A DNA stretch of 64,000 nucleotides from a virus (lineage: Duplodnaviria; Caudoviricetes), in the IMG/VR virus record IMGVR_UViG_3300030330_006525, positions 1 to 64,000 of that record, one strand, 5' to 3'. The notes under the pieces are model-generated. The model saw only the letters and a list, made by a program, of their open reading frames with translations. It was not told the DNA's origin and made no database searches. Below, in pieces: positions 3,383 to 43,821 of this stretch. Position 1 is the first letter of the stretch. Each line of letters starts with the position of its first letter. A program made the translations under genes and the position numbers.

Positions 3383-3575
3383 TACTTAACTCTTTTAATT
3401 TGATTTATTTCCCAATCATGACCTAAAATAGATTTAATTTTATATGCTTCAGTTACAGCTTCTGAAAAAGTTAGTCTCAATATACTTTTGTTTTTTAGTT
3501 GGTTATTTTTTGAATGCTGTAAAAGTAAGTTGAATTCTTTCATGAAAGGGCCTCCATATATTTTGATTTTATTAT

Positions 3576-3794
3576 TTATTCATCTTTTTTTTCAGTAGAA
3601 TCTTTTTTCTTTTTCTTTTTTTTCTTTGCTTTCTTAAGCAATTCTTTACACTCATCCCAAGAGCTTTTCTTTTCTTCAACTTCTACAATATCTGTCCCTC
3701 CAACCGGAGGTGGTGGAGCAGCGCTAGCAATTGGAAAACATAAAATAACTAACAACCAGGGCAAGGAATGTCGTTGGTGTCGCATATTAAACAT
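3576..3794 (-). CDS. small secreted, Lys-rich protein (true start probably ~3764)
   Basis: Signal-like segment, PPPP, poly-K tail. Confidence 0.45.
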   Translation of the reverse strand: MFNMRHQRHSLPWLLVILCFPIASAAPPPPVGGTDIVEVEEKKSSWDECKELLKKAKKKKKKKKDSTEKKDE

Positions 3795-9636: not shown

Positions 9637-9641
9637 GTTTG

Positions 9642-9927
9642 TGGAGGTGGCGGGAGTCGAACCCGCGTCCAGAATCTTTCAAATAGCACGTCATTCACAA
9701 GGTTAGTTAGTTTTAGGCTCTAACAAGCACACACAATAAAAGACAAAAGTTTTGCAACTTTGGGTTTCAAGGTTGTTGCCACCCCGAGATAATTAAGCAG
9801 CTTGTGCGAAGTTATCTAGTTCAACGTCATTATTTGCGTTTATAATTTTGAGTATTTTTACTGTGGCCATACTCACACAGCCTTGCACGCAGTATCATCC
9901 TTACCCTGTCGAAACCAAGTCACCCCC
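9642..9927 (-). ncRNA. ssrA: tmRNA (one-piece, compact ~286 nt), tag ANNDVELDNFAQAA* at 9837-9793
   Basis: 5' GGGGGTGACTTGGTTTCGAC; 3' GCGGGTTCGACTCCCGCCACCTCCA; G3:U acceptor pair; resume codon GCA and tag ending AA-stop. Confidence 0.95.
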
Positions 9928-23708: not shown

Positions 23709-23766
23709 CACCTACATCCACCTACATGTAGGAACCTGTATTCCGGTGTGGGAGGGGGGAGGGGGG
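23709..23766. repeat. CACCTACAT direct repeat, CCTACATGTAGG palindrome (23721-23732) and G-tract (23750-23766)
   Basis: Read directly from sequence. Confidence 0.85.
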
Positions 23767-25911: not shown

Positions 25912-26130
25912 TCAATCAAAATCAATGTCATGAATAGGGTTTCCCCACTGGCACAAAAACTGATCAATGCGCTCTTGGCTCAAGTTCTTGTGGTCTGCCT
26001 TGCCTGCCTCGAAAAACTCGACAAGATGAGCGGGTACACCTAAACTCTCGGCGGTTCCCTGAAGCCAACCGGCGGTATGACAGACACCAAGCTCCCAAGC
26101 ATCATCTTCGTGTGCAACGTGAAATTTCAT
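25912..26130 (-). CDS. small early protein (start corrected)
   Basis: The track's TTG start is the -35 box. Confidence 0.6.
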   Translation of the reverse strand: MKFHVAHEDDAWELGVCHTAGWLQGTAESLGVPAHLVEFFEAGKADHKNLSQERIDQFLCQWGNPIHDIDFD

Positions 26131-26164
26131 AATGTTTTCGCCTTTCATCCTCAATTGTGAATAC

Positions 26165-26193
26165 AATATAGCACGCTTTCTTGGTGCTGTCAA
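26165..26193 (-). promoter_or_regulatory. sigma70-type early promoter
   Basis: TTGACA-17-TATATT. Confidence 0.8.
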
Positions 26194-26200
26194 GCATTAT

Positions 26201-26467
26201 TTAACGCTTGCGACGATTTATTTTGAGCCTGCGCCCTTTTACCTCTTCAATACTGATAATCTCAAACCCAAACCTAACCATGCGGGCCAATGGTGCCCGG
26301 TTCCGCTTTGCTAAGCGCTCTAGCGCCCAATTGTTGGCCCAATCCTCCTTGCTAGGATCTCTAAGCCATGCCGCTGTCTCTGGTAGGACATTTGAGATCA
26401 TAAAGCTGTCTTTCATGATCTCTTCGTCGTTTTTGACTCTGCGATATTCAATTTTAAAGTTTGCCAT
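26201..26467 (-). CDS. small early protein
   Basis: 88 aa; AAGGA RBS; own promoter. Confidence 0.65.
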   Translation of the reverse strand: MANFKIEYRRVKNDEEIMKDSFMISNVLPETAAWLRDPSKEDWANNWALERLAKRNRAPLARMVRFGFEIISIEEVKGRRLKINRRKR

Positions 26468-26502
26468 CGATGATTTTTCCTTTTGTTCTTACTTATAAAT
26501 AG

Positions 26503-26531
26503 AATATAGCACGCCTTTCTTATGCTGTCAA
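26503..26531 (-). promoter_or_regulatory. sigma70-type early promoter
   Basis: TTGACA-17-TATATT; near copy of the 26165 promoter. Confidence 0.8.
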
Positions 26532-26589
26532 GCATTATTTGAAGAAAAAAACAAAAAAAATTTGCGGCGAAAAACCGCCCCAAAATCCG

Positions 26590-26822
26590 AGGGCTCCCAA
26601 CTTCCCCCGGGTGAACATAGCCTTAACGCTTACGCAACCACAAGCGGACCCGCTTTCTGGCCTATGCTCCCCACAAGATATCACAACACCAAGCGCTTGG
26701 CCGGTCATTTAAGCCAAGACGGGCGCGAACCTAGCCCGTTTTACTCTTTGCCATAGGCTCCACCCCGTCGAATGGCTCCCAGTGTTGGCAAGTTACACAA
26801 GAGCGGCGTACTAATAGCCCAC
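26590..26822 (-). ncRNA. candidate structured ncRNA of unknown family
   Basis: GC-rich intergenic block with at least six helices found by eye, followed by a GC hairpin and U-run. Confidence 0.5.
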
Positions 26823-26839
26823 CTGATATCGTTCTATGT

Positions 26840-27058
26840 CTAACCGTTCAATGCCTTGCGAGCATCCACGCCGGTTAAAACGTGTTTTGTCCCATCCTTC
26901 ATGATGATATGGGAACAAACAAAGCCCGGTCTCCGCTGTTCAAGACCAATAGCCTTGATATGGTGCGGAGCAATACCGTGCTCAATCTCGAAAGCAATCT
27001 GCCTGCTCAATTGCTGGCTCAATCGCAACATCTCTGCTCTTTTTTCTTGGATTGTCAT
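26840..27058 (-). CDS. small early protein
   Basis: 72 aa, downstream of promoter 27152-27180. Confidence 0.6.
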   Translation of the reverse strand: MTIQEKRAEMLRLSQQLSRQIAFEIEHGIAPHHIKAIGLEQRRPGFVCSHIIMKDGTKHVLTGVDARKALNG

Positions 27059-27151
27059 TTTTCTCTGCGCTTTCTTTTTTCTTGGATGTTCTCTTGTTCA
27101 TCCTGATTATTGTTGCTAGGTCCCACATTTTTTTTCCTTCATCGTGTATAT

Positions 27152-27180
27152 ACTATCGCACGTTTTTTTGTTGGCGTCAA
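27152..27180 (-). promoter_or_regulatory. sigma70-type early promoter
   Basis: TTGACG-17-GATAGT with extended TG and upstream T-tract. Confidence 0.65.
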
Positions 27181-29090: not shown

Positions 29091-29130
29091 GAAAAAAAAC
29101 ATCTTTTTTTGAAAATAATTTCCCACCAAA

Positions 29131-29207
29131 CCTACATGTAGGATAAAGTATTCAAGTGTGGTCGCGGGCATCGCGTCACTTCACACCTACCTTATCCTAC
29201 ATGCAGG
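29131..29207. repeat. 77-nt inverted repeat/cruciform with CCTACATGTAGG palindrome
   Basis: cctacatgtaggataa (29131-29146) versus ttatcctacatgcagg (29192-29207), one mismatch. Confidence 0.85.
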
Positions 29208-30126: not shown

Positions 30127-30141
30127 ATTAAAAAATGTCTG

Positions 30142-30213
30142 TGGGTCACCCCGGACTCGAACCGGGAACCAGCGGATTAAAAGTCCGATGCGCTACCATT
30201 GCGCCAGTGACCC
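30142..30213 (-). tRNA. tRNA-Lys(TTT)
   Basis: Cloverleaf GGGTCAC..CTTTTAA..GGTTCGAGTCC..GTGACCCA. Confidence 0.93.
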
Positions 30214-31687: not shown

Positions 31688-31792
31688 ACTATTCCCTTAA
31701 CAATTGCTGCGCCTAAACCAATTCCAAAACAAACTAAGAAGACTTGTATTGTTGGTACAATCTCTGCCAATTGAAAATCTACAATTAATGCT

Positions 31793-31981
31793 TCACTCAC
31801 TGATAACCTCCAGGTCACCGGACCTTTCCCAAACTGGCGTTGGTATATTGGGCCTGGACCACTTTACCTTTACCATGTAGTAACTTGCTTCATGCTCAAC
31901 AATTATACCAACATCATTTTTGCCAGCTGCAACATGAGAGACTGACCCGTGCTTATACTTTATTAGACTACCGACTTTCAC
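31793..31981 (-). CDS. KVGDLV-family small beta-barrel protein, array unit 7
   Basis: MKVGSLI..GIIV..VKW..LEVISE. Confidence 0.8.
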   Translation of the reverse strand: MKVGSLIKYKHGSVSHVAAGKNDVGIIVEHEASYYMVKVKWSRPNIPTPVWERSGDLEVISE

Positions 31982-32183
31982 TGATAACTCTCAACTCATC
32001 TGTAGTAAACAATTTAACTTCACAATTATCGCACAAAACTTCTACAACATGATAGACATCACCATCCATCACACCAATTTGGTGTGCATCACAATCGTCA
32101 GAAAGTCTTGGCTCAGTTAAAACCAGGCCGATATTAAAATAAAAACCATCAGCCTCATCTTTTACCAAGTCACCGACTCTCAC
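31968..32183 (-). CDS. KVGDLV-family protein, array unit 6
   Basis: MRVGDLV..LRVISESR. Confidence 0.8.
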   Translation of the reverse strand: MRVGDLVKDEADGFYFNIGLVLTEPRLSDDCDAHQIGVMDGDVYHVVEVLCDNCEVKLFTTDELRVISESR

Positions 32184-32370
32184 TGATTACCTCCAACTCT
32201 TCTTTTCTGGCGTGAATAATTTCATCTTTAAAATATACGCGATGACCCTCAAGTCTGCCCGTGTAATTCAGAGAATTGGGCCTTTCGGGCACGTATTCTA
32301 CCACTATACCAACACCATAAGACTCTTGGAATTTAGGATGCGTAAACCTCACTAAATCACCGACTTTCAC
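32170..32370 (-). CDS. KVGDLV-family protein, array unit 5
   Basis: MKVGDLV..LEVISESR. Confidence 0.8.
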   Translation of the reverse strand: MKVGDLVRFTHPKFQESYGVGIVVEYVPERPNSLNYTGRLEGHRVYFKDEIIHARKEELEVISESR

Positions 32371-32569
32371 TTAACACCTTCTCTACTGAGAATATTGATA
32401 TCTTTCTTCCTTCAGCACTCAACCAAGAATAATGTGGTTTGGCACCATTCATGAATTGGACCACCAAACTACGCACGGTTGACTGAGGGTGCCCAGGGTG
32501 GCGCATCTCCCTCTGGAGAATGATAGCTGTATTCCCATCGTGACACTCTATTAGACTACCGACTTTCAC
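32357..32569 (-). CDS. KVGDLV-family protein, array unit 4
   Basis: MKVGSLI..KVLSESR. Confidence 0.8.
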   Translation of the reverse strand: MKVGSLIECHDGNTAIILQREMRHPGHPQSTVRSLVVQFMNGAKPHYSWLSAEGRKISIFSVEKVLSESR

Positions 32570-32732
32570 TGATAACCTCCATTTGATTTTTGGGGTTTGA
32601 GTTTATCATTTCCTTTGGTCTGAACCATTTTATCACTCTTACCTCTTGAGTGCCTGGTATTTCTCTGATAACGATGCCGGCCCAATGTTGCCACTTTTCA
32701 TTTTTATACCTTACTAGGTCTCCGACTTTCAC
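32556..32732 (-). CDS. KVGDLV-family protein, array unit 3 (58 aa, absent from ORF track)
   Basis: Translated by hand: MKVGDLVRYKNEKWQHWAGIVIREIPGTQEVRVIKWFRPKEMINSNPKNQMEVISESR*. Confidence 0.8.
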   Translation of the reverse strand: MKVGDLVRYKNEKWQHWAGIVIREIPGTQEVRVIKWFRPKEMINSNPKNQMEVISESR

Positions 32733-32889
32733 TTATCACCTCACAACCACTAGTTACAAACCATCTACGCTTGCCATTACAGAGAACTTGAATTGTACCA
32801 CCTCTCTTGTTTAAGTGCAAGACAATTCCTATCGCTTCTCTCTCTCTGGATGGCATTGTCGAATAGCTAACGATATCACCGACTTTCAC
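32704..32889 (-). CDS. KVGDLV-family protein, array unit 2 (GTG start at 32889)
   Basis: MKVGDIV..EVISESRRPSKV; junction stop codon lost. Confidence 0.8.
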   Translation of the reverse strand: MKVGDIVSYSTMPSREREAIGIVLHLNKRGGTIQVLCNGKRRWFVTSGCEVISESRRPSKV

Positions 32890-33061
32890 TGATAACCTCC
32901 AGGTCATAATTCCAAACGTTATGTCCTATTGTACCATCTTGCCACAAAATGTCAAACACTTTATTACTAGATGTAACACCGCAAAGTGGATCAAAAACTT
33001 CCTTGATTGTCACACCTATCTTTTCTGAAAAGCAATGCTGAACAATGTCACCGACTTTCAT
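32876..33061 (-). CDS. KVGDLV-family protein, array unit 1 (ATG at 33061)
   Basis: MKVGDIV..LEVISESR. Confidence 0.8.
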   Translation of the reverse strand: MKVGDIVQHCFSEKIGVTIKEVFDPLCGVTSSNKVFDILWQDGTIGHNVWNYDLEVISESR

Positions 33062-33129
33062 TGTTTTCTCTCTTGTAATCTTTATATATTTATATAATAC
33101 CAAAACAAAAAACAAAATGCAAGAAAAAT

Positions 33130-34112: not shown

Positions 34113-34189
<77 letters not shown>

Positions 34190-38113: not shown

Positions 38114-38306
38114 CTCTTACCTTTGCTCTTCTTAAGTCTTTGCGAGGATGGCTGTATGCTAGATTCATTCTTATCCATTTTACCTTTACCCACTGAAGGT
38201 TACCATCGTTACCGGACAATACAATACCCAAGTCATCTTTAAAAGACGTTACTGTTTTTATTGAACGACCATACGCTGACAATTCAACTAAATCACCTGC
38301 TTTCAC
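38094..38306 (-). CDS. KVGDLV-family protein
   Basis: MKAGDLV..GIVL..VKW. Confidence 0.75.
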   Translation of the reverse strand: MKAGDLVELSAYGRSIKTVTSFKDDLGIVLSGNDGNLQWVKVKWIRMNLAYSHPRKDLRRAKVRDEKSNT

Positions 38307-38496
38307 TGATAACCTCCAGTGTTCTCTGTTCGTGCCATAGAATACTAGAGTGAGTAGTGTTCCATTTCACGCGAACATTTCTGTCATCTTTGTATCTCAG
38401 AGAACTAACCTCTATAATTACACCAAAGAATTTTTTGTGAACACGGTCAGATATAAATTGATTTTCTTTGTATCTGACAATATCACCAACTTTCAT
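38293..38496 (-). CDS. KVGDLV-family protein
   Basis: MKVGDIV..VKW..LEVISESR. Confidence 0.8.
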   Translation of the reverse strand: MKVGDIVRYKENQFISDRVHKKFFGVIIEVSSLRYKDDRNVRVKWNTTHSSILWHEQRTLEVISESR

Positions 38497-38687
38497 TTCT
38501 TTCTCCCATAATATAAACTACCAAAGAACAAGATATCAGCTACAACACCATAGATAAGTGGTGCATCCAACATATGCTGAGTTATAGTGAACATGCGTAT
38601 GCCAATAATCCAATAGCTGTCAATATCGCTGGTGTTGTGAAGAAAAGCACCACTTTCTCTACTCTTTTTAAATCTTCTGCGAACTCT

Positions 38688-43666: not shown

Positions 43667-43743
43667 TGGTCCACCCCCAGGGAATTGAACCCTGCTTTAG
43701 GACGCTTATAAGACGCCCCCTAACCACCAGCCAGCCGAGGTGG
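43667..43743 (-). tRNA. tRNA-Ile(TAT) with atypical D-arm
   Basis: Acceptor CCACCTC/GGGGTGG-ACCA; anticodon loop CTTATAA; T-arm CAGGG-TTCAATT-CCCTG. Confidence 0.75.
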
Positions 43744-43748
43744 AGAAG

Positions 43749-43821
43749 AGCCCGCGATAGGACTTGAACCTACAACCTATTGATTACAAATCAATTGCTC
43801 TACCAATTGAGCTACACGGGC
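43749..43821 (-). tRNA. tRNA-Thr(TGT)
   Basis: Canonical cloverleaf, TTTGTAA loop. Confidence 0.93.

Follow-up and report, generated by a model that had tools for sequence, protein, structure and literature searches.

A predicted family of small structured RNAs with an invariant junction core in large, uncultivated DnaE-encoding phages

The early transcription unit and its gene-free 3′ block

The stretch of DNA analysed here (64,000 nucleotides, hereafter the window) corresponds to positions 1-64,000 of a 185.6-kb phage record in IMG/VR (IMGVR_UViG_3300030330_006525), in which every open reading frame (ORF) of at least 300 aa lies on the minus strand, with the sole exception of an ORF at 92902-94155 that is nested within a 1512-aa minus-strand ORF. 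The phage encodes a DnaE-type polymerase, a GroEL-like chaperonin, and a PhoH-PIN protein, and a protein search returned no isolate phage with more than about 32% identity to its DnaE. The interval from 24 to 29 kb represents the early region, in which near-consensus sigma-70 promoters with extended -10 boxes are repeated in a layout of one small ORF per promoter. A direct repeat (23720-23758 and 29130-29168), which contains the palindrome CCTACATGTAGG, brackets this 5.5-kb early island.

The features of one unit of this region are collected in Table 1, and their predicted order is promoter (27180-27152), 72-aa ORF, module A, module B, and terminators. The product of the 72-aa ORF has no Pfam domain on record, and 89-92% identical proteins are encoded by L002, L007, L008, and L010. 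Between this ORF and the terminator-like hairpin lie approximately 280 nt without a credible ORF. The original prediction, made from the bare sequence, had described a GC-rich, gene-free block at this site, and both properties hold: the GC content is 0.53-0.56 compared with approximately 0.35-0.45 in the surroundings, and each of the six frames is interrupted by stops or, in homologues, disrupted by indels. The block is also located, as had been proposed, downstream of the promoter-like site at 27180-27152 on the minus strand and ahead of a minus-strand GC hairpin with a U-rich run; the latter was recovered by an intrinsic-terminator test as a GC-rich hairpin plus T-run at 26578-26564, and its version in L002 has a better stem by virtue of two substitutions. 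Neither ARAGORN nor Rfam (RF00005 and RF00023) detected a tRNA or tmRNA in the block, in agreement with the earlier view that it is neither, and the Rfam scan suggested at the time found no known family in it. On sequence grounds, the block is a minus-strand non-coding RNA that forms the tail of a predicted early transcript.

Table 1. Features of the early unit and of its RNA block (window coordinates)
Feature	Position	Strand	Basis or remark
Promoter-like site, TTGACG-17-GATAGT with TG	27152..27180	-	heads the unit; early-promoter repeat family D1/D3
72-aa early ORF, stop TAG at 26842-26840	26840..27058	-	RNA block lies in its 3′UTR
Module A, 155-nt lineage-specific insertion, predicted five-way junction	26682..26836	-	MFE fold
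Module A closing helix	26832-26820/26695-26683	-	predicted
Module A hairpins	26819-26805, 26804-26743, 26739-26719, 26718-26696	-	predicted
Module B, family member	26587..26674	-	R1, 125 bits; RNAalifold consensus; covariation counts
Invariant 5′ GUGGGG, last G being the first P1 base	26669..26674	-	conserved RNA starts here in every context
P1, closing stem	26669-26662/26620-26613	-	pair counts
P2, RCCA/UGGU, stacked on P1	26661-26658/26640-26637	-	pair counts
hp1, variable hairpin, 11-82 nt across the family	26655-26651/26646-26642	-	pair counts
P3, GC-GUAA-GC hairpin with invariant GUAA tetraloop	26635-26628	-	consensus
hp3, 7 bp, 1-2 nt past P1	26610-26604/26593-26587	-	all 7 pairs covary
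hp3 loop, invariant 10-nt AAGYUGGGAR (AAGUUGGGAG in the window)	26603-26594	-	consensus
Short U-run UUUU after hp3	26582..26585	-	5-8 U in most other members
Second, stronger terminator-like hairpin with 8-U run	26554..26579 (stem 26578-26564)	-	window/L002 lineage only
Next early promoter, TTGACA-17-TATATT, 11/12 matches	26503..26531	-	marks the end of the unit

The internal organisation of the block emerges from comparison with L002 (the record of L003 and L026), a related 192.8-kb phage that carries the same ORF at 89% amino acid identity. In this phage, approximately 155 nt are missing right after the stop codon, and the following ~115 nt are kept at 93% identity. We refer to the part missing in L002 (26836-26682, minus strand) as module A and to the retained part as module B; both modules are present in L010, L031, and L035, and module B alone in L002, L008, L009, and L018. 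A helix pairing 26591-95 with 26816-20 had been thought to close the whole block. This helix is absent from the minimum free energy (MFE) fold and spans parts that are found separately in relatives, and the bases at 26587-26593 pair instead with 26604-26610 in a conserved 3′ hairpin. As the closing helix is unsupported, the block is best described as two modules rather than one 230-nt RNA closed end to end. The proposal of a novel structured non-coding RNA thus survives for the 3′ part, which is supported by covariation and absent from Rfam 15, and is not supported as a single 230-nt architecture: what the GC-rich, gene-free block is predicted to hold is a real folded non-coding RNA in its 3′ ~90 bases.

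The surroundings of the block vary among close relatives. A cassette consisting of a promoter and an 88-aa ORF (26201-26531, minus strand), located directly 3′ of the RNA, is missing from L002, L031, and L035, where the next gene is a homologue of the window ORF at 25912-26193, indicating cassette shuffling in the early region. L031 and L035 also lack 63 nt of the leader of the 72-aa ORF (window 27059-27140, minus strand), a stretch that is present in the window and L010 and that overlaps a 48-aa ORF (27128-26982) in another frame.

Module B as a member of a conserved RNA family

Homologues of module B were sought by scans with short conserved blocks and then checked with a covariance model (R1) built from six sequences. 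R1 confirmed 27 matches at 55-125 bits, which amount to 22 distinct sequences. Their sources are IMG/VR contigs (19-281 kb), metagenomes of JGI and TARA, and a single phage-like contig that had been assigned to a metagenome-assembled genome (MAG). Exactly one copy of module B occurs in each of the phage records searched (9/9), and no second copy of either module was found elsewhere in the genome of the window's phage. No Rfam 15 family matched any of four members (the window, L030, L032, and L050) at E values up to 10, BLAST of the region and two other members found nothing among 50,697 isolate phage records, and protein searches with the flanking ORFs retrieved near-identical relatives only. 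Candidates that stemmed from early, over-specific DNA patterns or from chance matches (L004-L006 and L037-L043) were discarded by eye and by the covariance model.

Among genome contigs, the scan yielded one real match, L050, a 7.2-kb phage-like contig; three other candidates were rejected, one (L048) scoring 14 bits and two lacking an R1 match. L050 (CALGTL010000149.1) was binned into a Dehalococcoidia MAG and carries phage-type consensus promoters together with the RNA. It is probably a phage fragment put in the wrong bin, or else a weak hint to the host.

These matches identify module B as the window's single copy of a putative conserved small-RNA gene family of approximately 90-175 nt, which occurs in a clade of large, uncultivated, DnaE-encoding phages. 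Five large carriers were compared with the window, and their DnaE shares 41-78% identity with its counterpart there; four of five related large carriers encode a tmRNA.

The family shares an invariant junction core (CCAGA, GUGGUUGCGUAAGCG, and AGGC), to which the 5′ GUGGGG and the hp3 loop are likewise invariant additions. The window displays the features of the family, namely P1 and P2, GUGGUUGCGUAAGCG (at 26641-26627, the GUAA tetraloop hairpin included), and hp3 with the loop AAGYUGGGAR. A fourth hairpin, hp2, located between P3 and the 3′ strand of P1, is a 4-7 bp hairpin in most of the family and is absent from the window, L003, L031, and L035, where only UUA occupies its place; all remaining lineages possess it. 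Because it is missing in these four, hp2 is optional and does not define the family.

Support for this fold comes from covariation among the collected homologues, which had been named as one check of the original prediction. In alignment A7, which was fitted to the R1 model and favours the structure for that reason, 98.6% of 558 cells across the 22 distinct sequences are standard-paired, compared with 31-48% when the partners are slid. Two-sided changes occur in 17 of the 26 pairs (P1, 5/8; hp1, 5/5; hp3, 7/7), and none of 500 shuffles reached the observed covariation values. Two helices picked out by eye at the outset are thereby accounted for: 26613-20/26662-69 corresponds to P1, with two-sided compensatory changes in five of its eight pairs, and 26642-46/26651-55 to the variable hairpin hp1, in which all five pairs covary. 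An independent MAFFT and RNAalifold run produced the same fold. Furthermore, the hp2 stems, which lie outside the model, vary in a compensatory manner (GGUC/GACC, GAGA/UCUC, GGGA/UCCC, GGAA/UUCC, and GUGUC/GACAC). In the predicted, covariation-supported fold of module B, P1 closes a three- or four-way junction and hp3 comes after it. Its stability when folded alone is unremarkable (z -0.91), so thermodynamics by itself would have missed it.

The sequence of module B also argues against translation. The hp1 lengths (11-82 nt) cover all three residue classes modulo 3, and the window differs from L031 and L035 by a 1-nt indel in a loop. We considered and rejected a small peptide initiated at the conserved GUG, as the frame differs among near-identical copies and stops at different places. 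These length classes and frame differences indicate that module B is not coding. On the plus strand, a 64-aa ORF, whose conservation would have contradicted an RNA, crosses the module A/B boundary, which is the indel point; it is not conserved, given that module A is absent in L002-type relatives and that hp1 lengths fall into all classes modulo 3.

Within hp1, four otherwise divergent lineages (L010 at 1985-2025, L058, L061, and L067) have a long form of 38-39 nt with the shared inner sequence AGUGGGUAAGUCUUACGAGCAGUAAGCU, which looks like an optional conserved sub-domain. In L021, L050, and L051, hp1 measures 72-82 nt and contains the 13-mer CAUUGUUGUCAAG twice, on both arms of one hairpin.

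Module A, a sublineage-specific insertion

Module A has a predicted fold of -61.5 kcal/mol (z -2.75), with the MFE structure making up 14% of the ensemble, and 199 of 200 shuffled sequences fold less well. Three further helices of the original prediction (26696-701/26713-18, 26719-24/26734-39, and 26748-53/26786-91) reappear in this MFE fold, for which the comparison is confined to four sequences that are 93-99% identical. Across these four sequences, module A is 93.5-98.7% identical, compared with 90-93% for the ORF. Of six substitutions in its helices, five preserve pairing (four one-sided changes and one C-G to U-A double change) and one breaks a pair; the one-sided changes are G.U to A-U or the reverse, or C-G to U.G. 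With counts this low, the result lacks significance (75 of 500 shuffles). Rfam contains no match to module A, and neither a pattern scan of viral contigs nor the covariance model R2 located it beyond the sublineage of the window.

GATATC occurs on both flanks of module A, which sits directly 5′ of GUGGGG, the position occupied by a tRNA in other phages. Module A is probably an additional structured domain of this sublineage, or otherwise a second stable RNA, which would be added between the stop codon and module B. Three of its short hairpins (26819-26805, 26739-26719, and 26718-26696, minus strand) have the shared form GGC-U(A/U)....-GCC with loops of 9-11 nt, and could be repeated binding sites or a product of chance.

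The behaviour of module A as an indel between GATATC flanks, in an early region that is a mosaic of shuffled cassettes, might suggest that the block is functionless, whether as the remnant of a gene in decay, a GC-rich spacer that arose by chance, or the inert scar of a mobile element. Module B cannot be of this kind, given the covariation and invariant nucleotides maintained across phages whose polymerases are 41% identical, and module A itself is conserved at least as well as the adjacent ORF, besides outperforming nearly all of its shuffles in folding. We therefore consider a lack of function extremely improbable.

Genomic context and candidate functions

What precedes the RNA differs widely among carriers. 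In six lineages (L030, L059, L065, L067, L075, and the L062 type), its 5′ end lies 1-7 nt past a tRNA gene. This gene is tRNA-Arg(CCU) in L030 and tRNA-Arg(UCU) in L059, L067, L075, and, judged by its sequence, L065. The RNA follows the stop codon of an ORF in the window type, L021, L051, L032, L058, L060, and L068, and its own promoter with no intervening ORF in L050 (12/12 matches) and L064 (11/12), both with the TG extension. It thus appears to be transcribed from early-type sigma-70 promoters, two of which would serve the RNA alone.

A new self-cleaving ribozyme or processing signal that cuts at the invariant 5′ GUGGGG, freeing the RNA or the upstream tRNA or mRNA, would explain why the starting nucleotide is the same whether a tRNA, an ORF stop, or a promoter leader precedes it, as well as the invariance of the junction nucleotides. 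Small self-cleaving ribozymes are often found beside tRNAs in phages. Such a sharp 5′ boundary could equally well result from the action of RNase P, Z, or E or simply reflect conservation of the sequence, and no known ribozyme class or group I intron matched the window, L030, L032, or L050 at E values up to 10, which makes this possibility very unlikely. The search is sensitive to group I introns, since it found one beside the L062 copy. This intron (3551-3741, plus strand; 62.6 bits) interrupts a tRNA, the 3′ exon of which terminates 5 nt ahead of the RNA; ARAGORN made no call for the split tRNA.

At the 3′ end, hp3 is followed by at least four consecutive U residues in 14 of 20 lineages, and a terminator role is therefore certainly part of the function of this hairpin. 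The RNA could be, in its entirety, a cis-acting 3′-end module, that is, a structured terminator or insulator that closes early and tRNA transcription units, shields the upstream RNA from 3′ exonucleases, and has no function in trans. Its constant location at or near the end of a transcription unit, the frequent U-run, and the presence of a second terminator and the next promoter behind the RNA in the window are all consistent with such a role. However, two lineages provide a dedicated promoter and have nothing upstream that needs protection, and the copies located between tRNAs (in L067 and L061) retain the hp3 stem and the invariant loop intact in the absence of a U-run. An invariant multi-helix junction, a GUAA hairpin, and a fixed 10-nt loop are needless for a terminator, and there is one copy per genome despite many terminators. 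A purely cis-acting role consequently appears unlikely.

The downstream side offers a further comparison. In L030, L060, L064, and L068, an ORF with a ribosome-binding site lies directly 3′ of the RNA with no clear promoter, an arrangement compatible with a riboswitch-like attenuator in which the junction acts as a metabolite or tRNA aptamer and hp3 with its U-run as the expression platform controlling downstream read-through. Module B has the usual layout of junction-type riboswitch aptamers, in which a closing stem leads into a multi-helix junction whose core is invariant, the peripheral hairpins vary, and a terminator hairpin adjoins on the 3′ side, and its 5′ GGGG could compete with the GGG of hp3 for the CCC strand. 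Against this, the downstream genes are inconsistent and unrelated, the window, L032, L021, L051, and L050 each have a full promoter between the RNA and the following gene, and the U-run is missing where tRNAs come next. Furthermore, alignment A7 contains no conserved anti-terminator or alternative pairing, the terminator loop is invariant, which is rare for expression platforms, and no Rfam riboswitch is matched. Attenuation is thus about as improbable as the cleavage at GUGGGG discussed above.

No conserved neighbouring protein exists across lineages, as both upstream and downstream genes differ; the lone cross-lineage protein "cluster" was dismissed because it consists of antisense ORFs produced by the RNA sequence itself. 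The dedicated promoters, the presence of one copy per genome, and this lack of a conserved neighbour favour an autonomous gene over a cis element. Similarly, the start 1-7 nt after a tRNA and the U-run-free copies between tRNAs point to a link with tRNA processing, and a junction that stays invariant while its peripheral stems change freely is typical of an RNA that binds a protein or ligand or is catalytic, and not of a seed-pairing small RNA. Its single copy, shifting position, and unchanging core, together with the diverged DnaE of its carriers, suggest that the RNA is an old single-copy gene of one phage clade.

The reading we prefer, at a probability of roughly 0.5, is that of a trans-acting stable RNA, either released by nucleases or ending at hp3, which binds a factor related to tRNA or translation. 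Host nucleases that process tRNAs and other RNAs would excise it from longer early or tRNA-operon transcripts, or, alternatively, its 3′ end would be set by termination at hp3 and the U-run. The invariant core and the two exposed G-rich elements would then bind a protein or, less likely, a small ligand or another RNA, and the binding partner would be connected with tRNA or translation biology. We infer the transcript ends and the stability of the RNA from its sequence. A seed-pairing small RNA acting through the hp3 loop was also considered and rejected, the phage genome containing no site at one mismatch or fewer, compared with two expected by chance.

A bolder proposal, which we hold to be distinctly unlikely, is that module B represents a new functional RNA class tied to tRNA biology, namely a self-cleaving or processing ribozyme or a mimic of part of a tRNA. 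As a ribozyme, it would set its own 5′ end behind tRNAs and ORFs; as a mimic, it would titrate a host defence factor that binds or cleaves tRNAs early in infection. The hp3 loop, A-AGYUGGGA-R, resembles the canonical D-loop of tRNA (A14 R15 Y16 Y17 G18 G19 N20 A21).

Phage tRNA clusters have long been known for small stable RNAs of unexplained purpose, e.g., RNAs C and D of T4. These two (species 1 and 2; rnaC and rnaD) are small stable RNAs of 119-139 nt whose function is unexplained, and they are located directly behind tRNA-Arg(UCU) at the end of the tRNA cluster, much as six lineages of the present family lie 1-7 nt behind a tRNA that is mostly tRNA-Arg(UCU). However, the T4 region (L044) has no R1 match at E values up to 1 and no visible shared motifs, and the idea of homology was dropped for this reason. 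In addition, T4 rnaC ends in a tRNA-like T-arm, which the module B family lacks, and rnaC and rnaD reside in a tRNA cluster, whereas the RNA of the window is outside any such cluster, with its tRNA-Arg at 34113-34189. ROOL (RF03087), GOLLD (RF01998), and T5 RNAX are likewise phage-borne, highly structured, and commonly near tRNA genes. They measure 500-850 nt, compared with 90-175 nt for the module B family, and an Rfam search gave no match of the family to ROOL or GOLLD. Small RNAs from 3′UTRs and tRNA spacers (of the type of the 3′ETS of leuZ and CpxQ) arise from transcript 3′ ends, have an intrinsic terminator, and act in trans; these conserve mainly a short seed, whereas the whole junction core is invariant in the module B family.

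Small structured RNAs of phage tRNA and early regions are a known kind, and it is the predicted family and its architecture that are new. The family adds a compact and well-defined case, at ~90 nt, whose core is unusually invariant. Its maintenance as a single copy despite polymerase divergence to 41% identity indicates that the RNA is probably important to the clade, which consists of large marine-type phages whose genomes further include genes for tmRNA, tRNAs, and RNA-repair enzymes. With a covariance model and a secondary structure at hand, the function of the RNA is open to direct experiment. PMC10690425 describes 8,495 unnamed IMG/VR candidates, and the module B motif could be one of them.

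Several other elements were recorded in the window. A phage-encoded tmRNA (9639-9927, minus strand; 118 bits) specifies the tag peptide ANNDVELDNFAQAA. Four tRNA genes lie on the minus strand (Lys-UUU, 30141-30213; Arg-UCU, 34113-34189; Ile-UAU, 43667-43743; and Thr-UGU, 43748-43821), and the RNA copy of the window is not beside tRNA-Arg, unlike that of many relatives. A 34-nt junction repeat (family D2), present in ten copies spaced 157-202 bp apart at 31780-33074 and 38286-38509, marks tandem small-gene cassettes.
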